A stretch of 64,000 bases of DNA from Candidatus Levyibacteriota bacterium (GCA_963722305.1 CAVRKE010000002.1:379878-443877), one strand, 5' to 3'. Counted from the stretch's first letter, positions 28,401 to 55,182 are shown. The notes: generated by a model not told the origin, from the sequence alone. A program made the numbers and translations.

Positions 28401-31400
28401 CTAACTGCTAATGCCGGAGTTAAAGTTAACGGGACAGGTTCCACTGCGGATATAACCACGGATAAATCAACTGCCAATATCTTTAATACCACAGCAACCA
28501 CAGTTAATCTGGGTGGGGCTGCCACTACTATCTCCTTGGGGGCAACCAGTGGTACTACTACTATTAATAATAACCTGGCGGTAAGTCTGGTTGATAATAG
28601 TGCTTATGCCTTCAGTGTCTATGAAGGAGCCAATAGCTATCTTAATGTCAGCACCGTGGATAGCAGTGAGAATGTCGCTTTTGGCAATACTAGTACCAAT
28701 CCTTCCTATTCCTTCTTAGGTAGTGGAGCTACTACCTTTACCGGAAATATTAATGCCAACTCCGGAGTGATTGCTACTAGCCAATCATCAGCCAGCATTT
28801 TTAACTCTACTGCTACTACTGTAAACCTTGGTGGTGCGGCAACCAATATTAATATCGGGGCAACCAGTGGTACAGCGACTATTAAAAACGCCATTGTTTC
28901 CTTGCCTAATGCTACACAAGTTAATGCCAGTAATGCCGCCGGTAACTTTAACTCTCTAACCACCGGTGGAGGTTATACATCAACCGGAGCAACTATTGGC
29001 AGCAGTGGTAATATTCAGGCCAAAGGAACCTTAACTATTGATCTAACCTCTACCCTCACCGGTCTGGTTACTGCCAGCTCCGGAGTAAAGATTAATGGTA
29101 CCTCCACTGCGGATATAACCACGGATAAATCAACTGCTACTCTGTTTAATACCACCGCTACCACCGTTAATATTGGCGGGGCTGCCACAACTATCTCCTT
29201 GGGGGCAACCAGTGGTACTACTACTATTAATAATAACCTGGCGGTAACAGGAACAGGTACTTTTACCGGAGCGCTTACTGCCAACAATAACTTTAGTGCC
29301 AACGCCCAATCAACATTTACACCGTCTTCGGGTAACGGTGTACTTATCAATGTTGGTAATTCAAATTCCTTCTTGAGGTTAACTGGGCTAACCAGCGCAG
29401 CCGGCAACCCAATTTGCTTAGATAGCTCAAATAATGTTATCGCCTGCGCTAATGCCGCTCTTAGTCTTCAGAATGCCTACATCGGTGGCAACACCATTAC
29501 TACTTCCGATAATCGGGATATTGCCTTTAATCTGGCGGCAACAGGAGCAGATTCCAACTTTACGGTTACCACTGCTGCGGGTGGGATTGGTTATTCTGCT
29601 TTTGTTAGAGCAGATGGTTCAGCCAGCTTAGATCCTAGCCAATTGGTCTTAATCCAGAATTTGAACACCGGAAGAAGTTTGCCGGTTGGTCTAAAGATTG
29701 CCGGAGTCAATGGTGGTAATGTCACTACCGGAATTGATTTAACGGATAGTTATCTGACAACCGCTATTGATGTCGGTGGAAATATTATTAAAGGCACTGA
29801 CTTCTCTATTACCGGCTCAAACGGTAATATTACTACCTCAGGTACAGTAGCGGTTAACAGTGGCAGTATTACTACTACCTACGCAACCGGTAATGTCTTT
29901 AACAGTGTGGCATCCACTCTTAATCTAGGAGGAGCGGCAACCAATATTAATATCGGGGCAACTAGTGGTACAGCGACTATTAAAAATGCCATTGTTTCCC
30001 TACCTAATGCTACACAAGTTAATGCCAGTAATGCCGCCGGTAACTTTAACTCTCTAACCACCGGTGGAGGTTATACATCAACCGGAGCAACGATTGATAA
30101 CAGCGGTAATATCCAAGCCAATGGTAATTTAACTATTATCGGAACCTCTGACCTTAACGGTAATACTACTGTTGGCGCAGCCTTAGGAGTTACCGGCAAT
30201 GTTTCGGTTAATACCAATAAATTCACCATTGATGCTTCAACCGGGAATACGGTCATCGGTGGAACATTAACCGTTACCGGGAATACCTCCCTTTCCACTC
30301 TTAATACTTCGGGACTGGCAACCCTAAACAGTGCCTCTGTTACTAATAATGAGACAGTGGGAGGAGCATTAACAGTGACCGGTGTTTCTACCTTTAACGG
30401 CGGAGCAACCGTTGCTTCAGGACAAAACTTCCTGGCCCAGGGTCAATCAACCTTTACACCCTCTGCCAGTAGTGGTATTACCGTTAATACTACCAATGCC
30501 AATACCTTCTTTAGATTGAATGGACTAAGTAGTAATCCTGGTACACCTATCTGTTTAGACTCCTCCAATAATGTCATTGCCTGTGCCAATGCTTCCCTTA
30601 GTTTACAGAATGCCTATCTTGGTGGTAATACCATTACTACCACCACCGGCAGAAACATTGACTTTACCTTAGCATCATCTGGTGGCATCGGTTATGACGC
30701 TAACTTTAATATTACAACCGCTAACGGCTCAACTAGTTCAACCATTTTCTCACTGGCAGATGGGTCAAACACTACAGTTCCTAATCAATTAGTTTTACTT
30801 GATAACAAAAACACCACTAATATTTTGCCAAGCGCTATTAAAGTTACTTCTTCCGGAGGTGGAGCAATTACAAACGCTATCGACCTTTCCGATTCTCATA
30901 TTGTTAATGCCTTATCTTTAGGAACCGGCAATATTACTTCCGCTCACTTTACGCTTACCGGCACAAGCGGCAACATTTCCACCGATGGGCTCCTGACTGT
31001 TGGCGCCGGAGTTAAAGTTAACGGGACAGGTTCCACTGCGGATATAACCACGGATAAATCAACTGCTACTCTGTTTAATACCACCGCTACCACCGTTAAT
31101 ATTGGCGGGGCAGCCACAGCTGTTAATATCGGGGCAACCAGTGGTACTACTACTATTAATAGTGGCACCCTTTCTTTGCCTAATGCCACAGCGGTTACTG
31201 CCGGCAGTGCTCTACTGACTATTGATTCTGCTTCGATTGGTGGAGGGTATGGTTCAACCGGGGTAACTATCAGTAACACCGGCAATATCCAGGCAGACGG
31301 CACTTTAACCATTGGCAGCACTTCCGACCTTAAAGGACAAGTAACAGCAGAAGCCGGAGTTAAAGTTAACGGGACAGGTTCCACTGCGGATATAACCACG

Positions 31401-34400
31401 GATAAATCAACTGCCAATATCTTTAATACCACAGCAACCACAGTTAATCTGGGTGGGGCTGCCACTACTATCTCCTTGGGGGCAACCAGTGGTACTACTA
31501 CTATTAATAGTGGCACCCTTTCTTTGCCTAATGCCACAGCGGTTACTGCCGGCAGTGCTCTACTGACTATTGATTCTGCTTCGATTGGTGGAGGGTATGG
31601 TTCAACCGGGGTAACTATCAGTAACACCGGCAATATCCAGGCAGACGGCACTTTAACCATTGGCAGCACTTCCGACCTTAAAGGACAAGTAACAGCAGAA
31701 GCCGGAGTTAAAGTTAACGGGACAGGTTCCACTGCGGATATAACCACGGATAAATCAACTGCCAATATCTTTAATACCACAGCAACCACAGTTAATCTGG
31801 GTGGGGCTGCCACTACTATCTCCTTGGGGGCAACCAGTGGTACTACTACTATTAATAATAACCTGGCGGTAAGTCTGGTTGATAATAGTGCTTATGCCTT
31901 CAGTGTCTATGAAGGAGCCAATAGCTATCTTAATGTCAGCACCGTGGATAGCAGTGAGAATGTCGCTTTTGGCAATACTAGTACCAATCCTTCCTATTCC
32001 TTCTTAGGTAGTGGAGCTACTACCTTTACCGGAAATATTAATGCCAACTCCGGAGTGATTGCTACTAGCCAATCATCAGCCAGCATTTTTAACTCTACTG
32101 CTACTACTGTAAACCTTGGTGGTGCGGCAACCAATATTAATATCGGGGCAACCAGTGGTACAGCGACTATTAAAAACGCCATTGTTTCCTTGCCTAATGC
32201 TACACAAGTTAATGCCAGTAATGCCGCCGGTAACTTTAACTCTCTAACCACCGGTGGAGGTTATACATCAACCGGAGCAACTATTGGCAGCAGTGGTAAT
32301 ATTCAGGCCAATGGAACCTTAACTATTAACGGTACTTCCCTATTAAGCGGAGCGGTTACTACTAATGATACTCTAACAGTTAACGGTACAACAAATGCTA
32401 ATATTGTTTCTTCTAATTCCACTGTTAACCTCTTTAACTCCGGCTCCTCCTCTTTGTATATCGGTGGAGGTGCATCCACCATTTCTTTGGGGGCAACCAC
32501 TGGGACAACCACGGTGAATACCGATTTAACCCTTGGCTCCGGTAAGAAATTAACCACCACCGGTCCGGTTTCTTTCAATCCGGGAAGTAGTAATAACGTT
32601 GCAATAACTACCGGTGCCAGTTCGTTCCTGGTGATTAGCGGCTTAAGCCAAACTAGTGGATCGGCAATTTGTGTTGATTCCTCAAACCGTGTCGTAAAGT
32701 GCGATTCCTCAACTCAAGGCTTGCAAGCCGCTTATAACAACGGTAATACGATTACTACTGCCAGCTCTAAAGATATTGCCTTTAATCTGGCGAATAATTC
32801 CAACTTCTCGGTAACTACCGCTGCTGATACTACCGGTTATTCCATATTTAGGGAAGGTCCTAATTCTATTACTACAGTTCCAAACCAGTTAATCTTGGTT
32901 GATAATGCCGGGACTATCCCAGTACCAGAAGGAATTGTTATTGGTAACTCCGGTGGTGGTGGCATTATCACCGGCGTTGATGTTTCTGCTGCAACTACCA
33001 CCGGTATCGCTTTAGGTGGAACAGGAATCTCGGGAACCAACTTCAACGTTAATGGTTCAACCGGAGATGTTACCACCAGCGGCACGATTAATGCTAACGG
33101 CGGAACTATTGCTACCACTTCTACCGGAACTGTAAATCTTTTCAATACCAACGCCACCGGCCTTAATATCGGCGGAGCGGCTACTGGAGTAAGTATCGGA
33201 GCAACTAGTGGTACAGCGACTATTAAAAACGCTATTATTTCTCTACCTAATGCTACACAAGTTAATGCCAGTAATGCCAGCGGCAACTTCAACTCCCTAA
33301 CCACCGGTAGCGGTTACACTTCGGGGACCGGAACAACTATTACTTCAACCGGCGTAATCCAAACCAAAAGCAACCTAACTGTTGACGGAAGTTCTACTCT
33401 AACCGGAGATGTTACCACCAGCGGCACTATTAATGCTAACGGCGGAACTCTTGCTACCTCGGTTACCGGAACAGCTAGTATTTTCAATACCAACGCAACC
33501 GGACTTAATATTGGCGGAGCAGCAACCACTATTTCTTTAGGGGCGACATCCGGAACAACCACCATTAACAATAACTTAACTCTTGGTTCCGGTAAAACCT
33601 TAACCACCACCGGTCCTGTTTCTTTCAATCCGGGAAGCGGCAATAACGTTGCAATTACTACCGGTGCCAGCTCCTTCTTGACTATTAGCGGCTTAAGCCA
33701 AAATGCCGGCAGCTCGCTTTGCTTAGACGGTTCCAACCATGTCGGCACTTGTAACAGCGCTGCCCAAAGTTTGCAGGCCGCCTATAACAACGGCAATACT
33801 ATCACCACAACCGACGCTAGAGATATTGCTTTCACTCTGGCTCCTCATGTTTCTACTACCGATTCTAACTTTACGGTAACCACCGCTAACGGTTCAACCG
33901 GAGGTACCCAATTCTTAAGAGCCAGCGGAGGAAGCACTAATAATCCTTCACAATTAGTCTTAATTCAAAATCAGGCAACAGGAGCTTTACCGATTGGTCT
34001 AAAGGTTGGAGGAGTTGTCACTACCGCTGTTGACCTTTCGGATTCAAATATCGTCAATGCCTTAAACCTTGGCGGCGGAAATGTTTTAGCCAGTAAATTC
34101 TCTATCACCGGCTCAACCGGTAATATCTCAACCAGTGGCACCTTAACAGTTGATGGCGGTTCGATTGCTACCACCATCAGCAGCTCCACTATTAACTTGT
34201 TTAATACTAATGCTACCACTGTCAATCTTGGTGGAGCGGCAACCACTTTGGCGATGGGCGCAACCAGCGGCACAGCCAGTATCAACAATACGACCATTAA
34301 CTTTAATAATGCTACTGCCATCAACGCCGCCAGCGCAGTGACAGGAGTTAGTTCCCTAACCACCGGCGGAGGTTATGGCTCAACCGGAGCAACTATTGAT

Positions 34401-37400
34401 AATAGCGGTAATATCCAGGCCAAAGGAACCTTAACTATTGATAGCACTTCCCAATTAAGCGGAGCAGTTACTACCAACGGTACTCTCACCGTTAACGGTG
34501 CATCATCAGCTAATATTGTTTCTTCTAATTCCACTGTTAACCTCTTTAACTCCGGCTCCTCCTCTTTGTATATCGGTGGAGGTGCATCCACCATTTCTTT
34601 GGGGGCAACCACTGGGACAACCACGGTGAATACCGATTTAACCCTTGGCTCCGGTAAGAAATTAACCACCACCGGTCCGGTTTCTTTCAATCCGGGAAGT
34701 AGTAATAATGTTGCGATTACCGGCGGTGCTAATTCATATATTACTGTTTCCGGAATGCAGACAACCACCGGTCAATCTCCCACACTTTGTATTGATTCTT
34801 CAAATCGTATTGTTAAATGCGATGCTTCGGCCAACTTAAGCTTGCAATCCGCCTACAACAACGGTAATTCAATTACTACTACCAGCTCTAAAGATATTGT
34901 CTTTAATCTGGCGAATAATTCCAACTTCTCGGTAACTACTGCCGCCGGAGCAACCGGTAATTCTATGTTTAGTGAGGCAGCCAATGCAGGTTCGACTGTT
35001 CCAACTCAATTAATCTTGGTTGATAACGCCGGAGTCTTAGGTGTGGACAATGCAATTCCGACAGCCATTAAAGTTACCAGTACTGGCGGAGCCGGGTTTA
35101 CCACCGGCATTGATGTCTCTGCCGCTTTAACTACCGGTATTGCTTTAGGAACAAGCGGAATTTCCGGAACTTACTTTAATGTTGATACAGCAGGTAATAC
35201 TAGTATGAACGGCACCTTAACGGTTAACGGTGGAACGATTGGCACTACTGTCAGCCTTTCCACTATTAACTTGTTTAATACCAATGCTACCACTGTTAAT
35301 CTTGGTGGAGCAGCAACCAATTTGGCGATGGGCGCAACCAGCGGCACAGCCACAATTAATAATGCTATTGTTAACTTCCCACATGCTACTACCATTGGAG
35401 CAAGCGGTGCTGCCGGTAACTTTAAGTCTTTAACCACCGGCGGAGGTTATGGCTCAACCGGAGCAACTATTGATAATAGCGGTAATATCCAGGCCAAAGG
35501 AACCTTAACTATTGATAGCACTTCCCAATTAAGCGGAGCAGTTACTACCAACGGTACTCTCACCGTTAACGGTGCATCATCAGCTAATATTGTTTCTTCT
35601 AATTCCACTGTTAACCTCTTTAACTCCGGCTCCTCCTCTTTGTATATCGGTGGAGGTGCATCCACCATTTCTTTGGGGGCAACCACTGGGACAACCACGG
35701 TGAATACCGATTTAACCCTTGGCTCCGGTAAGAAATTAACCACCACCGGTCCGGTTTCTTTCAATCCGGGAAGTAGTAATAATGTTGCGATTACTACCAG
35801 CGGTAATTCTTTCCTGTCTGTTTCCGGACTGCAGGCCAGCACCGGAACACCGATTTGTGTTGACGGTTCAAACCACGTTGTCACCTGTACTGCATCAGCA
35901 ACGCTGCAATCCGCCTACAACAACGGTAATTCAATTACTACTACCAGCTCTAAAGATATTGTCTTTAATCTGGCGAATAATTCCAACTTCTCGGTAACTA
36001 CTGCCGCCGGAGCAACCGGTAATTCTATGTTTAGTGAGGCAGCCAATGCAGGTTCGACTGTTCCAACTCAATTAATCTTGGTTGATAACGCCGGAGTCTT
36101 AGGTGTGGACAATGCAATTCCGACAGCCATTAAAGTTACCAGTACTGGCGGAGCCGGGTTTACCACCGGCATTGATGTCTCTGCCGCTTTAACTACCGGT
36201 ATTGCTTTAGGAACAAGCGGAATTTCCGGAACTTACTTTAATGTTGATACAGCAGGTAATACTAGTATGAACGGCACCTTAACGGTTAACGGTGGAACGA
36301 TTGGCACTACTGTCAGCCTTTCCACTATTAACTTGTTTAATACCAATGCTACCACTGTTAATCTTGGTGGAGCAGCAACCAATTTGGCGATGGGCGCAAC
36401 CAGCGGCACAGCCACAATTAATAATGCTATTGTTAACTTCCCACATGCTACTACCATTGGAGCAAGCGGTGCTGCCGGTAACTTTAAGTCTTTAACCACC
36501 GGCGGAGGTTATGGCTCAACCGGAGCAACTATTGATAATAGCGGTAATATCCAGGCCAAAGGAACCTTAACTATTGATAGCACTTCCCAATTAAGCGGAG
36601 CAGTTACTACCAACGGTACTCTCACCGTTAATGGTACGCCCAATGCTAATATTGTTTCTTCTAATTCCACTGTTAACCTCTTTAACTCCGGCTCCTCCTC
36701 TTTGTATATCGGTGGAGGTGCATCCACCATTTCTTTGGGGGCAACCACTGGGACAACCACGGTGAATAATAATTTAACTATAACCGGCACCTTAACCGGT
36801 AATGGACAAACCAATCTAACCCCGGCAAATAATAATAACGTTGCAATAACTCTTGCGGGAACATCTAATTTCTCAATTACCGGATTAAGCGGAGCCGCCG
36901 GCACATCACTTTGTCTTGACTCGTCTAACCGTGTGGCAACTTGCAACGCCGGCTCATCTGCTGCAACACTGCAATCAGCTTATAACACTGGCAACACTAT
37001 TACTACCTCTAGCTCAAAAGATATTACCTTTAGTCTTGCCGGTTCAAGCTCTAATTTCTCGGTCATCACTCCTGCCAGCTCAACCGCATATTCCGCTTTC
37101 ACCAGAGCCAGCGGTACAGGCTCGGTCGATCCTAGCCAATTGGTCTTAATCCAAAACCAACAAACCAGAACCTTGCCGATTGGCTTAAAAGTTGCCGGAG
37201 TTTCCAGTGGAGTGGTTACTACCGCGATTGACCTTTCAGATGCCAACATCACTAATGCTTTAGCCCTTGGAGCCGGCAACATTACTGCTACCCACTTCTC
37301 TCTTACCGGCTCGAATGGAAATCTTTCAACCGACGGAACTTTAGCGGTTAACGGTGGCACTATCAGCACTAACCAATCAACCTTTAATTTGGTTAACGAT

Positions 37401-40400
37401 GTAACTGCTACTACGGTTAATTTTGCCGAAGGCGCAACTAACCTTACCATGGGCGCAACCAGCGGTACTGCCAGCATTAGAAATGGCGTTCTTTCTTTGC
37501 CAAACGCCACCGCTGTTAATGCCAGCAGCGCCACCGGTAACTTTTATTCCTTGACCACCGGCGGCGGTTATAGCTCAACCGGAGCAACTATTGATAATAG
37601 CGGTAATATCCAGGCCAAAGGAACATTAACTATTGATAGCACTTCCCAATTAACCGGAACCGTTACCGCCGGAGGAGGACTGGTCGTTAACGGCACCGGT
37701 TTAACCGGCGATATTACCACCGCTAAAGCCACCGGCACATTGTTTAATACTTCAACCGCTACTGTCAATATTGGAGGGGCCGCCACTACAATTAGCATCG
37801 GAGCAACTACCGGAACAACCACCATCAACAACGCCTTAACAATATCCGGAACTTTGACGGCCAACGGCGCCGCCAATATCGGTAATGGTAGTAGTACCAT
37901 TGCTTTAAGCGGCACTACCCTAACAACTACTACAACCAGCACAAATACAATCAGCATCCCCGACAATCTTGCCAGTGCCTTTGACATTAAACAAGGCAGT
38001 AATGATTACTTTAATATCACTACTACTAACGGCAGCAGATCAATAAGTTTTGGCAATGCTACCACTAATCCTGCCTACAACTTTAATGGCAGTGGCACGA
38101 TGACACTTACGGGTAGCTTGGTAGTTAACGGCGGCAATGTTTCCGCCACTTCCGGTACGTCTGTTAACTTATTCAACACCAGCCAAACTACTTCGCTAAG
38201 TATCGGCGGGAACGCAACAACTATTGCGCTTGGAGCGGCAACCGGAACTACCACCGTTAGCAATAATTTGACGGTTTCCGGCGCCACCACCACCCTTGCT
38301 TCAACACTGGTTAGTCTGACCGGCACCTCCCCTGTCGTTGACACAACCGGCTCAAATACTCTGAGCATTAATGCTACACACAATAATCCGGTTACTTTTG
38401 GCTCGGGTACATTTACTGTTAATTCCAGCACTATTAATTTGGCGGGTACCTCCCCTGTTGCAATTGCTGCCACCACCACCAATGCCGCCTTGGCCATTGA
38501 CAGTAACGGCAGCGGTGCTCTAAATCTTCAGGGCACTAATACCACCGGCGACGTCAACATTGCCGGCGGCTATAATAACACCGGCTGCACTATTTATAAT
38601 GCCAGTGGAAATATTTCCTGCTCCGGCTCATTTACTACCAATGCCAGTACCGGCACCGTCCAGTTTGGCTACTTTAACAGAAACTTTACCACCGGAGTAA
38701 TTTCCAATGCTACTGCCGGTGACACATTATCGATTTCCTCAACCAGTAACGGTACTTCGGCCTTAACTATTGCCAATACTGCCTTGACCGGAAACGGTAT
38801 TGCCGGATTTACCAATAATTTGACTATTACCGGAACCGGTGCGGGAAATAAATACTACGGAGAGAATACAACGGTTACCAACAACCAAACCGGTGCTGCC
38901 GACACGGCTTATGGAGAAAATATTTCCTTCGTCGATGCCGGAGCTTTGGCCAATACAGTTTATGGCTTATACGTTGACGCAAGCACGGCAAACGCCAATG
39001 ATACACAATACGCCGCGGCCTTTATGAACGGCAATGTCGGAATTGGCACCAATACTCCCACCGCCAAACTTGGTATCACGGGAGCAACCGGTGACACCGG
39101 CCTTACTCTAGCCGGAATCACCAGCGGAACCGAAATTAACTTATCATCGTCGATTACTTCCGGAACCGGCATGACTATAAATGCCGCCGGTTTGACCAGT
39201 GGAAACGGTATTATTCTAAACGGCACTTCTCCAACCAATCCGGCTGCCTTTAGCGGAAATATGATTAGTATTGCACCGACCCGTACGATATCCAGTGGCA
39301 CTTCCTCGATAAACGATACCGGAAATTATTTAAGCATTGCGCGAAGCAATAGTGTTTCGGTTGCCAATACCTTTACCATTAGCGGTGATTTAGTCAAGTT
39401 ATCATCCGGTTGTACTGTCAGTAATGGTGGGGTTTGTGCAGATACGTCTCATCTGCTTTCTCTTTATCAAACCCTTGCCTCCGCTTCCGGCAGCTTATTG
39501 TATATTAATAATGTTAGCAAAGGCTTGGCGCTTGACATCAACTCCATGGGATATACAAACCCGGTTGCCTCCATTTCGGGGACAACTTCCTTTGCCGCTT
39601 TAGTTGCCAACAATAACGGTGTTGGGGATTTGTTTACCGCTTCCGCCTCCGGTTGGACCAGGTTTAGTATAGATAACAGCGGAAATGTTAATACTACCGG
39701 AAATCTAACATTAGCGGGAACAACCGGGCTAACCCTTTCCGGAAACGGAGCAGACATTAACTTTACAGGCGCTGCCAGTAATATTGATACACTCACTACC
39801 GCCAACAACAATAACTTTGCGATATTGCCAAACGGGACCGGTTTTGTGGGATTAAACACAACGTCCCCTGTGGCTTCGTTTGATGTCAGAGGAAATTCCG
39901 GAACACTCGCCGCTGCTTCAGTCTCGGCTAAAACCAGCTTTGCCGCTTTGGTTGCCAATAATAACGGTGTTGGGGATTTGTTCACCGCTTCCGCCTCCGG
40001 TTGGACCAGGTTTGTCATTAAAAATAATGGTAATGTCGGCATTGGAACCAGTACTCCATCTACTACGGTTGGTGGAAACGTTCTGGAAATCAATTCTACT
40101 GTAGCAGGTAATTCCGGTCTTAAATTCACCCAGCTCAACAGTAACTCAGCTGTGTCATCAAACTATTCACAGTTGCTAGGACTCGATTCATCAGGCGATG
40201 TCGGTCTTTCCAGCGCCGGTATTTCTCTTACTTCACCGGCTCTTGCCTACTGGGATGCTACCCATGATCCGACCGGCGCAAACTATTCTTATCCGCAAGC
40301 TTCAGTACTAAGCCTTGGTAGTACAAATTTTACTCCGACCTGGACCCTTGCCAACGGCGAACAGTTGACTAATGCGAATACAAACGAAACAGGCGATATC

Positions 40401-43400
40401 AACTGGAGTTTCTCCCAAGTGCCGTTTGAGGAAATCCAGTTCCAGTTTAAAGCCGGCGGCGGCAATGGCGCTGACAGCACCTGGTTCTATAGTTACGCCG
40501 ACGACATTCCGACAACTGAATACGGTAACGCTTCCGGCAGTACCCATAACTTTACCCAAGGTTACCTGATTTACTTTACCGAATGGCATAATTGCGTCGG
40601 TATTAGCTATGGTCCGTATCTCGATCAACACCAGTGTAATCCTGGTGCACAAGGCACCGGCCCCATCGCCGCTGCACCCCTTTATAACATTGCCGATGGT
40701 AACTGGCACGCCGTGGACATCCAGATTCTATATAACCAGATTGTTGTCCGTTGGGACGGCAATGTTGTCCTAACCGCTACAGACCAATTTGGCCGGGATA
40801 CTTCTAAATTAAACTTCGGCTTTGCCTCGCGAACCGGCGGAGATGACAACAATCACTATATTAAAGGCTTGCTCGTCACCAAGCTTGGCACTAACACCTC
40901 CCAATATTATATTAGTAGTAACGTTTCACCACTGGCCAGCGGTCTATACTGGAACAATGCTTCCACCAGTGCCAGCACAACAACCGGTCTTGGTAAGTTG
41001 GGTATTAATGTTACAAGCCCAGCTTATACTTTAGAAATGAACGGCACAATGAATATCCATGCCCCGGTTTATAACACCGGCACTGCTGAACAAGGCGGTA
41101 GCCTTACCAATTGTTCTTACGCATCAGGAGGCTCTAATCCTACTGCCAGTACTACCGTTACCGGTATCGGAACAAGCTGGACCTCGGCATTAGTCGGAGA
41201 TATTATCACCATGCCAGACGGAACCGAAGAAACCATTACTGCTGTTGGCAGCACTACGTCGATGACAGTCTCCGGTACACGCGGAATCTGTCCGGGCACC
41301 TACAGTATTAATGCCCCGCAAACCTTAATGGTCAGTAGCGCCAACAGCACCTTGCCTGCTGTTAATGTTGGCGGCGTAAACGCTTATGCGGCACTTGCGG
41401 TTAATAACTCGGGCACCGGCGATGTCTTTACCGCTTCTTCTTCCGGCACAACGCTATTTACCATCGGCCATAATGGTAATCTGACATCTAATGCTTCTTC
41501 CGGTACCGGACTAAACTTTGCCAATAACGGCATTACAACCGATATTAATCTACAAAACGGCGGCACAATTGATAACCACACTAACGGACAAATCAAATTA
41601 GCTACCGCCGGCACCACCGGAAACTTAACTGATGTGGACTTCATCGGAACACCTACTCTAACCGGCGCTCTTAATGGATTACAAGTAGATGTTTCCGGCT
41701 TAACTACTACACAAGCTGGGGCCAATAATTTAACCGGTCTTAATATTGTTGGTTTCCAGGGAGGAAGCACAAATAATTATGGCATGAACATCGGAACAAT
41801 CACCGGAACCGGATCATCTGTAAATTATGGCTTAAATATTGGGAATGTAACCGGCGGAGGAACAAATTATGGCTTAAGAGTTCAAACCATTGCTGCTGCT
41901 GCTGCAAACTATGCCTTATATATTGATGCTCCTGCCCAAAACTACTTTGCCGGAAATCTCGGCTTGGGTACAACTTCACCAAATGCGGCTTTCGATATTG
42001 AAGGCAATACGCAAACACTAGCATTAATCGGCACAGGTGCAACATCTTCAGCCAACATCAGATTCCAAGTTACAAACTCCATCAGCTCAACCGCTTCTGC
42101 GCAAATCTGGAATGCTTTCCCCAATTCAGGAAATTCCGCTTGCACCAACTCACAATGTCATACTGCTTTATCGCTTAAGTTAGGCGCAAACAACACTTCT
42201 CTTCCAGGTCTTGGAGATAGATTCATTAATTTTGCTACCGGAAACGGAACTATCATTGGAAAAATTCAAGGAAACGGAGCCAACGTTGCTTATGCATCAG
42301 CCGGCGGAGACTATGCAGAATGGTTTAGGAAAGATAATCCGGACCAAAATTTTGCTTATGGCGATGTCGTTTGTCTTAATGCCAATGGTAACGTCGTTGA
42401 GTGCGACAGTAATAACAACCAACCCTTAGGTGTTATTTCCAGCTCCTCTGCTTTTATCGGTAATTCTAATTACGACGACGATCCGGCATATGTACTAGTT
42501 GGTTTATTCGGTCAAATTTCAACTAGCGTCAGTAACCAAAACGGCAATATTGAAACCGGTGACTTCTTAACGGTTTCCCCAACCACCGGGGTAGCGATGA
42601 AAGCCAGCAGCGCCGGACAAGTAATTGGTGAGGCCATGGAAGATTATAGTTCTGACCAAGTTGGACAAATTCTAGTCAGAGTCAACCCGACCTGGTATGA
42701 CCCGCAGGTTTATTTGACCGACACCGGTAATTTAAACTTGGTTGATCAAAATGTGTCCGATATTAATTACACTATTCCGCATTATTATACTTTGAATGAT
42801 GCTTTAGGTAATCCGTTGCAAAGAGTCGGCGAATTCTCAAGCGCCCTAATTGCTAATCTGCAAGCAGGAAGCGCCAATATCCAACAATTGACAACTAACG
42901 CTTTGAAAGTTACCGGTGAAAACATCACTATTAACGGACAGAATATCCATGACTATATTGCTTCGATTGTCAACGAGGTTTTGGGCAATCAAACCGGAGT
43001 TCCAACGCCGGAAAACATGCATACCGACTTAATTAGTCCTCTGGCCTCCGATTCTGCCCTGGCAATTAAATTTGATAATAATGAACTGGAAATCTTAAAT
43101 TCTAATACCGCCTCCGGTTCGGCAGTGGCCATTATTGATAACCAGGGCAATGCTTCATTTAGCGGAAAATTGAATTCTAATGAGTTAGCGGTCAGCACCA
43201 ATGCCACTGTTTCCGGAACATTGACTGCCGGCAAGATTGTTGCCAACAGTCTTGAACTATCCAACCAAGCTTTAACCGATTTGGCCAGCGAACTTTCCAC
43301 CGCCTCCGGCTTTGCCGTGAGCGGCGGCTTCCAGATTAACGGCGAGCTGACATCAACCAATGCAACGTTGGGCTCACAGGGCCAATTGGCAATTGATAAT

Positions 43401-45002
43401 AACGGCAATTTGACCACCAGTGGGGCTTTGAATTTGACCAACGGTTCGTTTAGCTCCGACAACAACGGCAACTTGGTGATGCAACTGGCCAATAATACCA
43501 GCGCCACCACTTCAACCCAGTTTACGTTTAAGAATGCTGCCGGAGCCAATGTCTTCTCGGTTGATTCAACCGGCAATGCCGCTTTATCGGGAACTTTAAC
43601 CACCTCTGCCGGCAATTATGATTTGGCTGAGGATTATCCAACCAAAGACGACGTTGAAGCAGGCGATGTTTTGTCGGTGAGCCTTACCGATAATGGGTTT
43701 GTTACCAAATCAAACGGAACTTACGACACTAATGTTATCGGCATTTACTCAACCAAACCCGGTTTCAGACTTTCCGAAACGGATGCAACTATTAACGGCG
43801 GTAAAACAGTTCCAATCGCTCTGGCCGGAAGAGTACCGGTTAAGGTCTCAACTGAAAACGGGGCAATCCATAAGGGCGATTACTTGACCACTTCCTCAAC
43901 AAGCGGGGTGGCTATGAAAGCCAGCAAACCGGGACAAGTCATCGGTAAAGCTTTGGCAGACTTTAACCAAACTGGAGTCGGTAAGATTATGGTCTTTGTT
44001 GATATTACTTTTGCCGATCCGGAAAAAGCCTTGGCCAATATTATCACCGACGATAACGGCAACATCGCCATTTCCAGCATTAGTTCAAACTCTGTCATTC
44101 TGCCGAACGACTTGCAAATCGGTACACAGGAAGTCGGTGGCACACTCAACAATGCCTTACTGGCAATCAGCAATACGCTTACGTCTCATGAAAACAAACT
44201 TAATACTTTGCAAACCGACGTCTTAGGACTAGCAACTCAGTCAGCCAGCTTAAACTCAAGAATTGCCAGTTTGGAAACCATTGAAGCAACTGCTTCTTCG
44301 CAAATTGCCCAAAGCACTAACCAGGTCGCTTCAAATGCCGCCGATGTGGCCAGCTTGAGCAGAAAAGTTGACGACATTATTTCCAGCCTTAGCGCTATGC
44401 CGACTGCGCCGGTTAATGTCAGTTCCGCCGCCGACCTTGGTCTTGGCAATGATGTTGAGTTAAGTACCGCCACTGTTTCCGGAAACCTCAACGTCTTAGG
44501 CCAAACCACTGTTAATGACCTTGGTATCACCGGCAATGTTTCAATGGGAGTTCTTAAACTTAACGGGTTGAATGATAACGGTACTGCCAGCATTAACACT
44601 TTATCCGGTGACCTAAGTCTTCAGGATTACGGGCTGGGCGGATTAAATATTCTTTCCGGCAAAGTGACAATTGATAAAGACGGCAATGTGAATATCCAAA
44701 AAACAGTTACTGCCCAAACCGTGAACACGCAAAAACTGAATATCACTACCGCGACTGCCACTTCTTCGGCAACGCTTAGTGCATCCGCCGGCACTGCCAC
44801 CATTAGTCAGAATACTGACAGTGTCACGATTAAAACCACCGCTGTCACCAACAATTCTTTGATATATGTGACCTTTAGCGGCGACTACAGTCCGGCGGTC
44901 AGGTATTGGATTGAAGGCAAAGTGGCCGGTAATTCATTCACCGTCAAACTCGATGCGGCAGTTGCCAACAGTGTTAAATTCAACTGGTGGATAGTTAATT
45001 AG
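23877..45002 (+). CDS. Giant T/N/G/S-rich modular repeat protein, C-terminal part (or continuation of the same gene). The homologous in-frame sequence really begins after the insertion near 23995; the first ~40 codons of the ORF-track ORF are out-of-frame read-through.
   Basis: 7041-aa ORF. Same module family as the upstream ORF, with 1044 bp identical to its 3' end. Non-repetitive C-terminal 6.5 kb carries a ConA/LamG-like domain, GxVGIGTxxP motifs, paralogous modules and a coiled coil. Stop TAG at 45000-45002. Confidence 0.8.
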   Translation: MFLPLTAEQPLLQDKTSWPRVNQPLHPLPVVVLPLILPMANTFFRLNGLSTAILVPICLDSSNNVIVLYQSTVSLQTAYHGGNTITTTTGRNIDFTLGSGLATSFNLTNQGTATGFNLNNTSSGNALAVTSGGINALTIDNNGNSTSSGNFTTSGNIATANSGTITSNGLLTASNGLTVTTGNVNITGTAGAISLSSLNASSIALSGTNNLTITANNFNVSGTGINNTAIGAGSTQSTGAFTTLSSNNNTTLASGAGATLTLGNTTGTVTLNGSTVSINSNGAGNALSLGIAGNTASAFNVSQGSNKYINVNTSTGTENVAFGNTSTNPSYSFLGTGQTTFGGNVSVSGTLGVTGNTSLSTVNTSGLATLDSLLTENFATVSGTLTVNDLTQLNSTLGVSGNTSLGGTLGVTGNVSVNTNKFTIDASTGNTVIGGTLTVTGNTSLSTLNTSGLATLNSASVTNNETVGGALTVTGVSTFNGGATVASGQNFLAQGQSTFTPSASSGITVNTTNANTFFRLNGLSSNPGTPICLDSSNNVIACANASLSLQNAYLGGNTITTTTGRNIDFTLGSGLATSFNLTNQGTATGFNLNNTSSGNALAVTSGGINALTIDSSGNLTTNGNFSQGGTATTFSTGTGNVSLNGNTAVTGSNTFTVGTGATSLGGTLGVTGNVSVNTNKFTIDASTGNTVIGGTLTVTGNTSLSTLNTSGLATLNSASVTNNETVGGALTVTGVSTFNGGATVASGQNFLAQGQSTFTPSASSGITVNTTNANTFFRLNGLSSNPGTPICLDSSNNVIACANASLSLQNAYLGGNTITTTTGRNIDFTLGSGLATSFNLTNQGTATGFNLNNTSSGNALAVTSGGINALTIDSSGNLTTNGNFSQGGTATTFSTGTGNVSLNGNTAVTGSNTFTVGTGATSLGGTLGVTGNVSVNTNKFTIDASTGNTVIGGTLTVTGNTSLSTLNTSGLATLNSASVTNNETVGGALTVTGVSTFNGGATVASGQNFLAQGQSTFTPSASSGITVNTTNANTFFRLNGLSSNPGTPICLDSSNNVIACANASLSLQNAYLGGNTITTTTGRNIDFTLGSGLATSFNLTNQGTATGFNLNNTSSGNALAVTSGGINALTIDSSGNLTTNGNFSQGGTATTFSTGTGNVSLNGNTAVTGSNTFTVGTGATSLGGTLGVTGNVSVNTNKFTIDASTGNTVIGGTLTVTGNTSLSTLNTSGLATLNSASVTNNETVGGALTVTGVSTFNGGATVASGQNFLAQGQSTFTPSASSGITVNTTNANTFFRLNGLSTPAAAGVALCLDSSNNVTQCSSNTVTLQTAYAGGNTITTTTGRNIDFTLGSGLATSFNLTNQGTATGFNLNNTSSGNALAVTSGGINALTIDSSGNLTTNGNFSQGGTATTFSTGTGNVSLNGNTAVTGSNTFTVGTGATSLGGTLGVTGNVSVNTNKFTIDASTGNTVIGGTLTVTGNTSLSTLNTSGLATLNSASVTNNETVGGLLTANAGVKVNGTGSTADITTDKSTANIFNTTATTVNLGGAATTISLGATSGTTTINNNLAVSLVDNSAYAFSVYEGANSYLNVSTVDSSENVAFGNTSTNPSYSFLGSGATTFTGNINANSGVIATSQSSASIFNSTATTVNLGGAATNINIGATSGTATIKNAIVSLPNATQVNASNAAGNFNSLTTGGGYTSTGATIGSSGNIQAKGTLTIDLTSTLTGLVTASSGVKINGTSTADITTDKSTATLFNTTATTVNIGGAATTISLGATSGTTTINNNLAVTGTGTFTGALTANNNFSANAQSTFTPSSGNGVLINVGNSNSFLRLTGLTSAAGNPICLDSSNNVIACANAALSLQNAYIGGNTITTSDNRDIAFNLAATGADSNFTVTTAAGGIGYSAFVRADGSASLDPSQLVLIQNLNTGRSLPVGLKIAGVNGGNVTTGIDLTDSYLTTAIDVGGNIIKGTDFSITGSNGNITTSGTVAVNSGSITTTYATGNVFNSVASTLNLGGAATNINIGATSGTATIKNAIVSLPNATQVNASNAAGNFNSLTTGGGYTSTGATIDNSGNIQANGNLTIIGTSDLNGNTTVGAALGVTGNVSVNTNKFTIDASTGNTVIGGTLTVTGNTSLSTLNTSGLATLNSASVTNNETVGGALTVTGVSTFNGGATVASGQNFLAQGQSTFTPSASSGITVNTTNANTFFRLNGLSSNPGTPICLDSSNNVIACANASLSLQNAYLGGNTITTTTGRNIDFTLASSGGIGYDANFNITTANGSTSSTIFSLADGSNTTVPNQLVLLDNKNTTNILPSAIKVTSSGGGAITNAIDLSDSHIVNALSLGTGNITSAHFTLTGTSGNISTDGLLTVGAGVKVNGTGSTADITTDKSTATLFNTTATTVNIGGAATAVNIGATSGTTTINSGTLSLPNATAVTAGSALLTIDSASIGGGYGSTGVTISNTGNIQADGTLTIGSTSDLKGQVTAEAGVKVNGTGSTADITTDKSTANIFNTTATTVNLGGAATTISLGATSGTTTINSGTLSLPNATAVTAGSALLTIDSASIGGGYGSTGVTISNTGNIQADGTLTIGSTSDLKGQVTAEAGVKVNGTGSTADITTDKSTANIFNTTATTVNLGGAATTISLGATSGTTTINNNLAVSLVDNSAYAFSVYEGANSYLNVSTVDSSENVAFGNTSTNPSYSFLGSGATTFTGNINANSGVIATSQSSASIFNSTATTVNLGGAATNINIGATSGTATIKNAIVSLPNATQVNASNAAGNFNSLTTGGGYTSTGATIGSSGNIQANGTLTINGTSLLSGAVTTNDTLTVNGTTNANIVSSNSTVNLFNSGSSSLYIGGGASTISLGATTGTTTVNTDLTLGSGKKLTTTGPVSFNPGSSNNVAITTGASSFLVISGLSQTSGSAICVDSSNRVVKCDSSTQGLQAAYNNGNTITTASSKDIAFNLANNSNFSVTTAADTTGYSIFREGPNSITTVPNQLILVDNAGTIPVPEGIVIGNSGGGGIITGVDVSAATTTGIALGGTGISGTNFNVNGSTGDVTTSGTINANGGTIATTSTGTVNLFNTNATGLNIGGAATGVSIGATSGTATIKNAIISLPNATQVNASNASGNFNSLTTGSGYTSGTGTTITSTGVIQTKSNLTVDGSSTLTGDVTTSGTINANGGTLATSVTGTASIFNTNATGLNIGGAATTISLGATSGTTTINNNLTLGSGKTLTTTGPVSFNPGSGNNVAITTGASSFLTISGLSQNAGSSLCLDGSNHVGTCNSAAQSLQAAYNNGNTITTTDARDIAFTLAPHVSTTDSNFTVTTANGSTGGTQFLRASGGSTNNPSQLVLIQNQATGALPIGLKVGGVVTTAVDLSDSNIVNALNLGGGNVLASKFSITGSTGNISTSGTLTVDGGSIATTISSSTINLFNTNATTVNLGGAATTLAMGATSGTASINNTTINFNNATAINAASAVTGVSSLTTGGGYGSTGATIDNSGNIQAKGTLTIDSTSQLSGAVTTNGTLTVNGASSANIVSSNSTVNLFNSGSSSLYIGGGASTISLGATTGTTTVNTDLTLGSGKKLTTTGPVSFNPGSSNNVAITGGANSYITVSGMQTTTGQSPTLCIDSSNRIVKCDASANLSLQSAYNNGNSITTTSSKDIVFNLANNSNFSVTTAAGATGNSMFSEAANAGSTVPTQLILVDNAGVLGVDNAIPTAIKVTSTGGAGFTTGIDVSAALTTGIALGTSGISGTYFNVDTAGNTSMNGTLTVNGGTIGTTVSLSTINLFNTNATTVNLGGAATNLAMGATSGTATINNAIVNFPHATTIGASGAAGNFKSLTTGGGYGSTGATIDNSGNIQAKGTLTIDSTSQLSGAVTTNGTLTVNGASSANIVSSNSTVNLFNSGSSSLYIGGGASTISLGATTGTTTVNTDLTLGSGKKLTTTGPVSFNPGSSNNVAITTSGNSFLSVSGLQASTGTPICVDGSNHVVTCTASATLQSAYNNGNSITTTSSKDIVFNLANNSNFSVTTAAGATGNSMFSEAANAGSTVPTQLILVDNAGVLGVDNAIPTAIKVTSTGGAGFTTGIDVSAALTTGIALGTSGISGTYFNVDTAGNTSMNGTLTVNGGTIGTTVSLSTINLFNTNATTVNLGGAATNLAMGATSGTATINNAIVNFPHATTIGASGAAGNFKSLTTGGGYGSTGATIDNSGNIQAKGTLTIDSTSQLSGAVTTNGTLTVNGTPNANIVSSNSTVNLFNSGSSSLYIGGGASTISLGATTGTTTVNNNLTITGTLTGNGQTNLTPANNNNVAITLAGTSNFSITGLSGAAGTSLCLDSSNRVATCNAGSSAATLQSAYNTGNTITTSSSKDITFSLAGSSSNFSVITPASSTAYSAFTRASGTGSVDPSQLVLIQNQQTRTLPIGLKVAGVSSGVVTTAIDLSDANITNALALGAGNITATHFSLTGSNGNLSTDGTLAVNGGTISTNQSTFNLVNDVTATTVNFAEGATNLTMGATSGTASIRNGVLSLPNATAVNASSATGNFYSLTTGGGYSSTGATIDNSGNIQAKGTLTIDSTSQLTGTVTAGGGLVVNGTGLTGDITTAKATGTLFNTSTATVNIGGAATTISIGATTGTTTINNALTISGTLTANGAANIGNGSSTIALSGTTLTTTTTSTNTISIPDNLASAFDIKQGSNDYFNITTTNGSRSISFGNATTNPAYNFNGSGTMTLTGSLVVNGGNVSATSGTSVNLFNTSQTTSLSIGGNATTIALGAATGTTTVSNNLTVSGATTTLASTLVSLTGTSPVVDTTGSNTLSINATHNNPVTFGSGTFTVNSSTINLAGTSPVAIAATTTNAALAIDSNGSGALNLQGTNTTGDVNIAGGYNNTGCTIYNASGNISCSGSFTTNASTGTVQFGYFNRNFTTGVISNATAGDTLSISSTSNGTSALTIANTALTGNGIAGFTNNLTITGTGAGNKYYGENTTVTNNQTGAADTAYGENISFVDAGALANTVYGLYVDASTANANDTQYAAAFMNGNVGIGTNTPTAKLGITGATGDTGLTLAGITSGTEINLSSSITSGTGMTINAAGLTSGNGIILNGTSPTNPAAFSGNMISIAPTRTISSGTSSINDTGNYLSIARSNSVSVANTFTISGDLVKLSSGCTVSNGGVCADTSHLLSLYQTLASASGSLLYINNVSKGLALDINSMGYTNPVASISGTTSFAALVANNNGVGDLFTASASGWTRFSIDNSGNVNTTGNLTLAGTTGLTLSGNGADINFTGAASNIDTLTTANNNNFAILPNGTGFVGLNTTSPVASFDVRGNSGTLAAASVSAKTSFAALVANNNGVGDLFTASASGWTRFVIKNNGNVGIGTSTPSTTVGGNVLEINSTVAGNSGLKFTQLNSNSAVSSNYSQLLGLDSSGDVGLSSAGISLTSPALAYWDATHDPTGANYSYPQASVLSLGSTNFTPTWTLANGEQLTNANTNETGDINWSFSQVPFEEIQFQFKAGGGNGADSTWFYSYADDIPTTEYGNASGSTHNFTQGYLIYFTEWHNCVGISYGPYLDQHQCNPGAQGTGPIAAAPLYNIADGNWHAVDIQILYNQIVVRWDGNVVLTATDQFGRDTSKLNFGFASRTGGDDNNHYIKGLLVTKLGTNTSQYYISSNVSPLASGLYWNNASTSASTTTGLGKLGINVTSPAYTLEMNGTMNIHAPVYNTGTAEQGGSLTNCSYASGGSNPTASTTVTGIGTSWTSALVGDIITMPDGTEETITAVGSTTSMTVSGTRGICPGTYSINAPQTLMVSSANSTLPAVNVGGVNAYAALAVNNSGTGDVFTASSSGTTLFTIGHNGNLTSNASSGTGLNFANNGITTDINLQNGGTIDNHTNGQIKLATAGTTGNLTDVDFIGTPTLTGALNGLQVDVSGLTTTQAGANNLTGLNIVGFQGGSTNNYGMNIGTITGTGSSVNYGLNIGNVTGGGTNYGLRVQTIAAAAANYALYIDAPAQNYFAGNLGLGTTSPNAAFDIEGNTQTLALIGTGATSSANIRFQVTNSISSTASAQIWNAFPNSGNSACTNSQCHTALSLKLGANNTSLPGLGDRFINFATGNGTIIGKIQGNGANVAYASAGGDYAEWFRKDNPDQNFAYGDVVCLNANGNVVECDSNNNQPLGVISSSSAFIGNSNYDDDPAYVLVGLFGQISTSVSNQNGNIETGDFLTVSPTTGVAMKASSAGQVIGEAMEDYSSDQVGQILVRVNPTWYDPQVYLTDTGNLNLVDQNVSDINYTIPHYYTLNDALGNPLQRVGEFSSALIANLQAGSANIQQLTTNALKVTGENITINGQNIHDYIASIVNEVLGNQTGVPTPENMHTDLISPLASDSALAIKFDNNELEILNSNTASGSAVAIIDNQGNASFSGKLNSNELAVSTNATVSGTLTAGKIVANSLELSNQALTDLASELSTASGFAVSGGFQINGELTSTNATLGSQGQLAIDNNGNLTTSGALNLTNGSFSSDNNGNLVMQLANNTSATTSTQFTFKNAAGANVFSVDSTGNAALSGTLTTSAGNYDLAEDYPTKDDVEAGDVLSVSLTDNGFVTKSNGTYDTNVIGIYSTKPGFRLSETDATINGGKTVPIALAGRVPVKVSTENGAIHKGDYLTTSSTSGVAMKASKPGQVIGKALADFNQTGVGKIMVFVDITFADPEKALANIITDDNGNIAISSISSNSVILPNDLQIGTQEVGGTLNNALLAISNTLTSHENKLNTLQTDVLGLATQSASLNSRIASLETIEATASSQIAQSTNQVASNAADVASLSRKVDDIISSLSAMPTAPVNVSSAADLGLGNDVELSTATVSGNLNVLGQTTVNDLGITGNVSMGVLKLNGLNDNGTASINTLSGDLSLQDYGLGGLNILSGKVTIDKDGNVNIQKTVTAQTVNTQKLNITTATATSSATLSASAGTATISQNTDSVTIKTTAVTNNSLIYVTFSGDYSPAVRYWIEGKVAGNSFTVKLDAAVANSVKFNWWIVN
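25084..28393 (+). repeat. Intragenic tandem array, 777-bp unit (259 aa), about 4.3 copies, near-identical. Copy 4 has a variant Cys-loop.
   Basis: Unit GTLGVTGNVSVNTNKFTIDAS...NGLSSNPGTPICLDSSNNVIACANASLSLQNAYLGGNTITTTTGRNIDF... repeats. Identical antisense ORFs at 25754, 26531, 27308 and 28091. Confidence 0.9.
31005..31860 (+). repeat. Intragenic tandem array, 348-bp unit (116 aa), about 2.4 copies, near-identical.
   Basis: AGVKVNGTGSTADITTDKSTA...LKGQVTAE repeats at 31005, 31353 and 31701. Antisense ORF 30944..31813 shows the internal repeat. Confidence 0.85.
34330..36620 (+). repeat. Imperfect tandem triplication with periods of about 1074 and 1062 bp.
   Basis: Antisense ORF offsets 34373->35447 (1074), 35171->36233 and 35447->36509 (1062). 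Block SSNSTVNLFNSGSSSLYIGGGASTISLGATTGTTTVN recurs. A fourth more distant copy sits near 32400. Confidence 0.75.
40392..40890 (+). other. Concanavalin A/LamG-like lectin (jelly-roll) domain within the giant protein's C-terminal region.
   Basis: Segment ...WFYSYADD...GYLIYFTEWHNCVGISYGP...GNWHAVDIQILYNQIVVRWDGNVVLTATDQFGRDTSKLNFGFASR matches the W-H-x-V...LY-x-N/DG-x-V pattern of the ConA-like/LamG superfamily. This is a motif-level call, not an HMM hit. Confidence 0.45.
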
Positions 45003-45033
45003 GCTGAAAACCGTTTTAAGATAAGCTTGGGTA

Positions 45034-45063
45034 TTGTAATCTAATTCGTCCAACTGATATTAT
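45034..45063 (+). promoter_or_regulatory. Possible sigma70-like promoter for ppsA: TTGTAA, 18-nt spacer, TATTAT. No Shine-Dalgarno before the ATG.
   Basis: Motif spacing read from the sequence 16-45 nt upstream of the ATG at 45079. Confidence 0.3.
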
Positions 45064-45078
45064 AAATATACCTGCCCT

Positions 45079-47538: not shown

Positions 47539-47568
47539 TTTAAGTAGTATAATAATCTAAGACCAAAT

Positions 47569-49209: not shown

Positions 49210-49224
49210 GTCCCCTGTTTTGTT

Positions 49225-51537: not shown

Positions 51538-51566
51538 AAAACAGATAATTCCCTACCGGATTTAAA

Positions 51567-51595
51567 GATATAAACATTAAAACAAAATTTCACAA
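51567..51595 (-). promoter_or_regulatory. Possible sigma70-like promoter for the Wzy_C/TPR gene (minus strand): TTGTGA, 17-nt spacer, TATATC. Divergent from the IS1595-fragment promoter.
   Basis: Read from the reverse complement of 51567-51595. ATG lies at 51537. Confidence 0.35.
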
Positions 51596-51627
51596 GACAG
51601 TCAATAAGCAATTTAGGTATTTATCCC

Positions 51628-51656: not shown

Positions 51657-51663
51657 TTAATTT

Positions 51664-52455: not shown

Positions 52456-52472
52456 CTCAAGGGTTTTAATAA

Positions 52473-55131: not shown

Positions 55132-55182
55132 AGCTAAGCAACGGTTGCGAATTATTGAATAATTAGTTATTCTTTATTTACG

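Follow-up and report, generated by a model that had tools for sequence, protein, structure and literature searches.

A divergent L-type-lectin-fold domain near the C-terminus of a giant, phage-fibre-like protein from a Patescibacteria bacterium

The locus and its lectin-fold domain

The DNA analyzed here, referred to as the window, is a stretch of 64,000 nucleotides from Candidatus Levyibacteriota bacterium (GCA_963722305.1 CAVRKE010000002.1:379878-443877). It carries about 15,000 codons of a giant plus-strand gene whose protein product exceeds 15,000 residues. Within the window, ~13,410 codons of T/N/S/G-rich repeats (frame breaks ignored) precede a compact, all-beta domain, which homology and a structural model place at residues 5453-5671 of the last open reading frame (ORF) of the gene (ORF2; 23877..45002, plus strand, 7041 codons). 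This domain and the protein that carries it are the subject of this report. An earlier interpretation made from the nucleotide sequence alone, the sequence-only reading, had described it as a ConA/LamG-like lectin domain near the tip of a giant protein, distal to a stalk of about 13,000 residues, a length that is adjusted by the count given above.

The domain is about 220 residues long and is followed by 1,370 further residues of the carrier protein. The interval originally assigned to it (40392-40890) is in phase with ORF2 (frame 1), with many stops in the other two frames, and the quoted translation, including ...GNWHAVDIQILYNQIVVRWDGNVVL..., is exact. The domain in this interval is real, but the start at 40392 truncates it because homology and the model put the start at 40233; the first ~53 residues, amounting to two or three N-terminal strands, were missed. 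The fraction of F, W, Y and H per 100 residues peaks at 0.20-0.21 around ORF2 residues 5480-5630, compared with a mean of 0.05 and a maximum of 0.10 in the upstream giant ORF (ORF1). The segment is indeed the only aromatic-rich one, as had been claimed, but the protein has other globular segments, with two ~140-residue beta modules and a K1-lyase_C-like domain lying downstream. Similarly, its placement near the tip is approximate: the domain is C-terminal-proximal, and the residues that follow hold four or more additional modules. When the window was searched in six frames with the family hidden Markov model (HMM) using --max, a single match was obtained (40215-40922, independent E-value 6.8e-82), and a second copy of the lectin domain in the window was rejected as no other match was found.

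For homology searches, a 246-residue query (40197-40934) was compared exhaustively with 1.84 billion representative sequences using phmmer. The number of clusters matched was 118 at E<=1e-3, falling to 38 at E<=1e-10 and to 21 at E<=1e-30. The lowest E-value was 1.8e-83, and the best matches aligned over residues 2-246 with 53-64% identity. The segment is a real, conserved domain, and the similarity is far beyond chance. A word-indexed homologue search returned only two fragments. Single-sequence searches of NCBIfam, PHROGs and the PDB with the query gave nothing above threshold, and Pfam gave no match at E<=1 to Lectin_L-type_dom, Lectin_legB or Lectin_leg-like. The only Pfam matches of the query were to three members of the ConA-like clan (CL0004), all of them below threshold: 3keto-disac_hyd (PF06439; E 8e-4), Laminin_G_1 (PF00054; E 0.1) and Laminin_G_2 (PF02210; E 0.12). 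A close homologue, P0031, scored 26.7 bits where the cut-off is 78.3. Among distant homologues, 28 of 63 matched Lectin_L-type_dom (PF18483; best 1.7e-24) and as many matched 3keto-disac_hyd, followed by Lectin_leg-like and Laminin_G_2 (15/63 each) and Lectin_legB (8/63). The clan families matched by homologues are PF18483, PF06439, PF03388, PF02210, PF00139 and PF13385.

An AlphaFold2 (AF2) model built with a 28-sequence alignment (A2) had a mean predicted local distance difference test score (pLDDT) of 87.9 and a predicted template-modelling (TM) score of 0.86, and was all-beta, with 13 strands between query residues 15 and 229. Foldseek comparison of this model with the PDB gave 470 matches at E<=1e-3; among the 50 top-ranked ones, nearly all had the ConA-like fold. 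Ranks 1-36 were all L-type lectins, namely ERGIC-53, VIP36, Emp46p/Emp47p and the legume-lectin domain of Methanocaldococcus jannaschii (7elv), with E-values of 7e-9 to 1e-7 and TM scores of 0.6-0.66 for ERGIC-53/VIP36 and 0.5-0.6 for the rest. Lower ranks were taken by CBM66 and further ConA-like folds. When the family profile was compared with PDB sequences, full-length matches were obtained to 7elv (3.4e-8), VIP36 (8.9e-6) and ERGIC-53 (~1e-3). The model thus predicts a jelly-roll beta-sandwich of the ConA-like lectin/glucanase superfamily, and we regard this fold as secure. The fold call made in the sequence-only reading is borne out, with no confident assignment to a non-lectin family emerging from the searches.

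Of the two names originally given to the domain, the ConA-like clan stands and LamG does not. Profile matches to neurexin, laminin and SHBG were numerically stronger than those to the lectins, but they are sums over a motif of ~35 residues, 'D-x-x-W-H-x-V-x-I ... v-D-G', whereas the L-type matches are full-length. The LamG matches at E 0.1-0.12 covered only residues ~193-238 of a 333-residue query, and the PDB LamG matches were confined to profile positions 112-172, with the best stretches at 127-164. Membership in LamG was rejected because the similarity is local only, and the nearest kin of the domain within the clan are the L-type lectins. LamG domains (neurexin, laminin alpha, SHBG) belong to the same clan and share the corresponding 'DxxWHxVxI...vDG' strand pair, but they lack the GxGAD and GFGARTGGxxNxH motifs described below.

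The PF06439 matches raise the question of whether the domain acts enzymatically, breaking down the polysaccharide of a partner as a member of the 3-keto-disaccharide hydrolase (DUF1080) or glucanase branch. This family is the best Pfam match of the query and recurs among the distant homologues at the frequency given above. We nevertheless consider an enzymatic function highly improbable: the query match is local and falls below the gathering threshold (19.9 versus 26.8 bits), on which grounds membership in the GH16/DUF1080 enzymes was rejected; the match to a putative glycosyl hydrolase, 4jqt, is likewise local (residues 127-169, E 1.3e-3), in contrast to the full-length L-type lectin matches; all of the top fold matches are lectins; and no GH16-type ExDxxE motif was seen on reading the sequence.

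Anatomy of the putative binding site

Conservation was compared between 20 close and 58 distant family members, and residue equivalences to reference lectins rest on sequence alignments. The residues conserved in both sets are L57-T58, G66, G87-G88-G89-x-G91-A92-D93, P105, E108, G122-Y123, (S/D)128-E129, D167-x-x-W170-H171, D187-G188 and G208-F-G-A-R-T-G214-G-x-x-N218-x-H220, and they fall in loops equivalent to the sugar site of L-type lectins. The positions of the individual elements are listed in Table 1. A92 and D93 are present in 100% of the close clade and in 93% of the distant members, and in the HMM alignment the counterpart of D93 is the Asp in 'HGDGI' of VIP36. G122 is conserved in 100% of close and 97% of distant members, and Y123 in 100% and 86%, respectively. 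Towards the C-terminal end, the TGGDDNNH loop aligns to VIP36 'GTGDLSDNHDI' and has the same length as TGDLSDNH of VIP36 and TGGLADDH of ERGIC-53, with G214 and H220 invariant in alignment A2. We take the Asp loop and this variable loop (TGDLSDNH in VIP36) to be the mannose-contacting loops of L-type lectins.

The metal-binding region is altered. Two distant members of A2 keep the full metal loop EFDxYxNxxDPxxxH, whereas the query reads Y-F-T-E-W-H-N-C and then enters the next strand. In ConA numbering, E8 corresponds to Tyr126 and D10 to Thr128, the loop bearing D19 and H24 is deleted, and N14 falls at position 132. Position 128 is Ser in nearly all of the clade (S/T) and Thr in the query, while 64% of the distant members have Asp there; at position 132 the window encodes Asn, and members of the clade have N, H, G, D, K or A. 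An 18-residue insertion specific to the clade lies beyond the remnant of this loop. Cys133 (40593-40595) and Cys147 (40635-40637) are found together in 17 sequences; two sequences have only C133, and none has only C147. From this co-variation the two residues probably form a disulfide, which may stabilize the shortened loop in place of metals. Judged from the alignments, the domain keeps part of the L-type sugar-site scaffold without the canonical Asp-Gly-Asn plus metal arrangement.

The closest structural comparison is with the ERGIC-53, VIP36, Emp46p/Emp47p and M. jannaschii domains (8jp7, 2dur, 2a6v, 7elv), which have the same jelly roll and gave the best Foldseek and full-length profile matches. 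The domain has in common with the ERGIC-53/VIP36 group the Asp loop, a G-Y/L strand start, a 'TGGxxxxH' loop of equal length and a GF(G/S)A motif, but identity to the group is only 13-19%. The position of VIP36 D162, a Ca2+ ligand, is Ser/Thr here and that of Asn166 is not conserved, and the domain has the clade-specific 18-residue insertion with its co-varying cysteine pair. The setting also differs: the ERGIC-53/VIP36 proteins are type-I membrane cargo receptors, whereas the present domain lies within a bacterial fibre of more than 15,000 residues. With the legume lectins and ConA (Lectin_legB; Lectin_L-type_dom, PF18483) the domain shares Ala-Asp at the position of the cis-peptide Asp and the loop-B Gly; distant family members still match PF18483 or PF00139, while the query clade is without ConA E8, D10, D19 and H24.

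The same site bears on whether the ligand is a carbohydrate at all. The domain might instead bind a protein or lipid, or decorate or stabilize the fibre, as has been proposed for the staphylococcal proteins Aap, SasG and Pls. The loss of the canonical metal ligands, the variable Asn position and the local LamG-type similarity fit such a role, and there is precedent for it: the L-lectin folds found in Aap, SasG and Pls contain no cis-peptide and showed no binding on the glycan arrays used (PMC9999234). On the other hand, conservation across the family clusters in the counterparts of the L-type sugar-site loops, where the Ala-Asp is invariant and loop D is as long as that of VIP36 and ERGIC-53, and relatives of the domain occur together with CBM2 and in phage receptor-binding contexts. 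On balance we think a non-carbohydrate or purely structural module unlikely. A glycan is the most plausible ligand because the Asp and Gly loops and loop D are retained and because of the phage receptor-binding context.

Carrier protein, relatives and genomic neighbourhood

Table 1. Features of the giant gene and of its lectin-fold domain, in window coordinates.
Feature	Position	Strand	Basis or remark
Stalk part 1, T/N/S/G-rich repeats	3..22643	+	Open to window start
Frame-broken stretch of the same repeat family	22644..23876	+	Single-base indels relative to paralogous copy
Stalk part 2, ORF2 residues 1-5452	23877..40232	+	777-nt and longer repeats
L-type-lectin-like jelly-roll domain	40233..40889	+	AF2 model, Foldseek, family HMM
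GGGNGAD loop, domain residues 87-93	40455..40475	+	Asp93 aligns with GDG/ADG sugar-loop Asp of L-type lectins
Gly122-Tyr123, position of legume-lectin loop-B glycine	40560..40565	+	Conservation
TEWHNC, metal-loop remnant (ConA E8-L-D10-T-Y12-P-N14)	40578..40595	+	Alignment A2
Clade-specific 18-residue insertion GPYLDQHQCNPGAQGTGP	40611..40664	+	Gapped in 69-98% of distant members, by position
TGGDDNNH loop, within family motif GFGARTGGxxNxH	40833..40856	+	Alignment A2, VIP36 alignment
First 'GGDYAEWF...GVAMKAS' beta module	42303..42707	+	33% identity to second module (alignment A4)
Second 'YDLAEDYP...GVAMKAS' beta module	43608..44027	+	AF2 pLDDT 91.2, Foldseek
Probable coiled coil	44145..44390	+	Heptad-like sequence; weak Pfam matches ATG16, DAHL, Rab_eff_C
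C-terminal K1-lyase_C-like domain	44781..44996	+	PF24146 E 3.7e-5, 24.5 bits, cut-off 27

A scan of 185,579 species genomes with an alignment of the close clade (A3) identified 15 loci, 11 of them in metagenome-assembled genomes (MAGs) of Saccharibacteria, Saccharimonadia, Patescibacteria-group bacteria or Parcubacteria. The remainder bore the labels Acidiferrales, Binatia, Gammaproteobacteria and Chloroflexia, the last with a partial and weak match. The closest relative of the lectin domain (67% identity) and two others (L002, L005 and L015) are among the MAGs labelled Acidiferrales, Binatia and Gammaproteobacteria (the last a 1.6-Mb chromosome); such labels could reflect mis-binning, mislabelling or horizontal transfer. 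At all 15 loci the domain is part of a large open frame, the retrieved DNA covering 747 to more than 4,600 codons of it, and it is found 135-1441 residues before the end of the frame; in two loci the frame continues past the contig edge. The complete homologues L003 and L006 begin with Sec-type signal peptides. The window itself supplies the stalk and the single lectin-fold domain, the signal peptide being seen in these two homologues only.

The family extends to viruses. A viral homologue with 38% identity (tblastn 3e-44) makes up the C-terminal two-thirds (residues ~57-274) of a 276-residue protein that carries the phage-fibre motif 'SSGLMSTIDKTKLDSLP'. Its gene (L018, 7833-8663) is on a 320-kb contig from IMG/VR, UViG_3300046092_000062, and directly follows another fibre-like gene (7035-8663 for the two). 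The contig is of jumbo-phage size, and it is possible that phages and Patescibacteria surface fibres share receptor-binding modules. Related short proteins carry the Pfam domain Phage_fiber_rpt, short phage-like homologues gave only weak matches to PHROGs, and fold matches in BFVD include actinophage minor tail and tail fibre proteins. Other relatives join the domain to pilin, subtilase (S8), CBM2 or type IX secretion system (T9SS)-tail domains. Because of these partners and Phage_fiber_rpt, the relatives are all considered extracellular. Compared with the ConA-like receptor-binding domains of phage tail fibres and minor tail proteins, where the direct homologue is C-terminal, the domain described here is internal and chromosomally encoded.

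The residues downstream of the domain also have a phage-like character. They include a small conserved segment shared with P0002 and the two ~140-residue beta modules, for which no Pfam match was found and which share the pattern DLAE(D/W)Y / GDYLTxSSxxGVAMKA; modules of this type are widespread in Patescibacteria and tail-fibre-like proteins. The model of the second module resembles the C-terminal auto-chaperone of phi29 gp12 (3gqh, 3suc) and trimeric phage capsid decoration proteins (8pkh), with E-values of ~3e-4 and TM scores of 0.45-0.62, a moderate match. This suggests that the modules are trimerization or chaperone modules, and they might be cleaved off. A probable coiled coil followed by a K1-lyase_C-like end is the arrangement of phage tailspike and fibre ends. 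PF24146 is also precomputed for many homologues of the C-terminal region; these are mostly from Patescibacteria, and some are labelled Peptidase_S74, Peptidase_G2 or 'tail fiber protein'. Within this phage-fibre-like protein, the lectin-fold domain is therefore part of the 'business end' at the C-terminus, though not the terminal module.

How the protein is held at the cell is relevant to which way the domain faces. Rather than reaching a partner, it could bind the producer's own cell-wall or S-layer glycopolymer and so tether the C-terminal end, with the repeats and the N-terminus projecting outward. The apparently cleavable signal peptides of the homologues, with which the N-terminus may not stay membrane-anchored, would suit this arrangement, as would the lack of any LPXTG, SLH or transmembrane anchor seen at the C-terminus and the presence nearby of the Wzy_C and GT4 genes described below, the former conserved as a neighbour in L002 and L015. 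We consider self-anchoring decidedly unlikely, however. The C-terminal end of phage fibres is normally the distal, receptor-binding one; the domain is C-terminal in the phage fibre-like homologue, and the downstream modules resemble C-terminal modules of phage appendages. Furthermore, the N-terminus of the protein, with any signal peptide or anchor, lies outside the window, because ORF1 is open from base 3, and an N-terminal anchor there is possible. The earliest listed start of ORF1 is a TTG at 66, yet the frame extends back to base 3 without a stop.

Four plus-strand ORFs (..22643, 22771..23130, 23108..24010 and 23877..) make up the giant gene in the window, with three frame changes between 22643 and 23877 that end in the original frame (mod 3 = 0 -> 1 -> 2 -> 0). 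The changes stem from single-base indels relative to a 97%-identical paralogous repeat, among them an additional C at 23117 and an additional G at 23993. The genes of the window lie on a 679-kb contig deposited in NCBI and ENA, and they are also present on a 15-kb contig that was assembled from a soil-sample run, ERR11594402 (Logan). Antisense ORFs at 6353-11143 (minus strand) recur at a spacing of 1395 nt and reveal tandem units in ORF1, and in ORF2 777-nt units at 25254-27273 (plus strand) repeat at 90-100% identity. Because the tandem units are near-identical, recent expansion is indicated, and the assembly of the gene is fragile.

The gene that directly follows, for phosphoenolpyruvate (PEP) synthase (45079-47538), does so as well in the JGI relative L001, in which frameshifts break up the genes. 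The PEP synthase of the window is 72-79% identical to proteins from the Patescibacteria group, Saccharimonadales and Saccharibacteria, which points to Patescibacteria, and probably to Saccharibacteria, as the source of the window. A gene encoding Wzy_C (O-antigen ligase/polymerase-like) and tetratricopeptide repeats (TPR) is located at 49225-51537 (minus strand), and homologues 62-63% identical to it adjoin the giant gene in L002 and L015. Wzy_C is also found in protein O-oligosaccharyltransferases (PglL/PilO), so the Wzy_C+TPR protein may glycosylate the Ser/Thr-rich fibre. Elsewhere in the flank are an archaeal-type PEP carboxylase gene (PEPcase_2, E 8e-135; 53623-55131) and a GT4 glycosyltransferase gene (55562-56818, minus strand). 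The G+C fraction is 0.44-0.48 in the giant gene and 0.38-0.39 downstream (44001-64000). Mobile-element genes downstream encode an IS1595-type zinc ribbon (51664-52128), an IS110 transposase (59154-60101) and a helix-turn-helix plus rve integrase (61485-62195); several such genes are unusual for small Patescibacteria genomes. No phage structural genes were found in the window.

Proposed role and biological meaning

We favour, with moderate confidence, the interpretation that this divergent L-type-lectin-fold domain is an adhesive, ligand-binding module in the C-terminal part of a giant secreted fibre that resembles phage tail fibres and belongs to a Patescibacteria bacterium, most likely one of the Saccharibacteria. 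The T/N/S/G-rich repeats would form a very long fibre, which we infer to be trimeric, and by analogy with phage fibres the C-terminal region would be its distal end. There the domain would contact a polymer on the surface of a partner or a host, a cell-wall glycan being the most plausible one, using loops of the concave face whose conservation spans the family (GGGxGAD, GY, DxxWH and TGGxxNxH). Binding would be non-canonical, as there is no classical Mn/Ca site and the place of the deleted metal loop is followed by the insertion with its probable disulfide. A precedent for a glycan ligand comes from the Saccharibacteria strain TM7x, for which the predicted model of the minor pilin PilX1 was similar to L-type lectins and binding to the host was all but lost in the presence of soluble rhamnose (PMC11623550); by analogy, these findings are consistent with the ligand proposed here.

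Long adhesins of Gram-positive bacteria offer a second comparison. SraP, the Periscope proteins Aap/SasG/Pls, Lactobacillus Llp/Msl and Lactococcus YwfG likewise present one L-lectin-fold domain on a long repetitive stalk (PMC9999234), and, as in Aap, SasG and Pls, binding by the present domain is probably non-canonical. The staphylococcal Periscope proteins have the lectin domain in an N-terminal A region and a C-terminal wall anchor, whereas here the domain is C-terminal-proximal and no anchor is visible. The stalk is also at least 10 times longer than those of the Gram-positive adhesins.

Several observations count against the interpretation we favour. Three frame breaks interrupt the gene and could mean a recent pseudogene or a sequencing or assembly error. 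The query itself reaches no Pfam gathering threshold. At the putative site, the ConA-type metal ligands E8, D10, D19 and H24 are replaced or deleted, and the equivalent of Asn14, a Ca/sugar ligand in canonical lectins, varies within the clade; moreover, a lectin fold does not imply sugar binding, because the Aap, SasG and Pls folds bound no array glycan (PMC9999234). The signal peptides of the homologues look cleavable (VLA|ST, ANA|A) and no anchor is visible. Finally, the 1,370 residues that follow the domain mean that it is not terminal.

Repetitive adhesins and phage fibres with lectin-fold heads are already known, and the fold assignment is in that sense unsurprising. What is new is a clade outside all Pfam models, with the metal loop deleted and an insertion bearing a co-varying cysteine pair, in a phage-fibre-like protein of more than 15,000 residues from an ultra-small bacterium. 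Literature searches found no description of the giant protein or of this domain clade. The domain would exemplify an L-type lectin fold without the classical metal site.

A more far-reaching proposal, which we regard as possible though doubtful, is that the domain is the host-recognition head of a chromosomal fibre of more than 15,000 residues derived from a phage tail fibre, with which a Saccharibacteria-type epibiont catches its bacterial host via cell-wall glycans, using a metal-independent, disulfide-stapled site shared with the receptor-binding proteins of jumbo phages. Such fibres could exceed the length of the ultra-small cell itself. If this proposal is true, the equipment for recognizing hosts would be interchangeable between epibiont and phage. 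As to the means by which Patescibacteria locate and keep hold of host cells, lectin-like minor pilins and rhamnose-containing wall glycans of the host have only recently been implicated (PMC11623550). In this setting, a small, well delimited and confidently modelled domain that recurs close to the C-terminus of huge secreted proteins, mostly in MAGs of Saccharibacteria and other Patescibacteria, and again in a fibre protein of a jumbo phage, is a concrete candidate for a host-recognition module.

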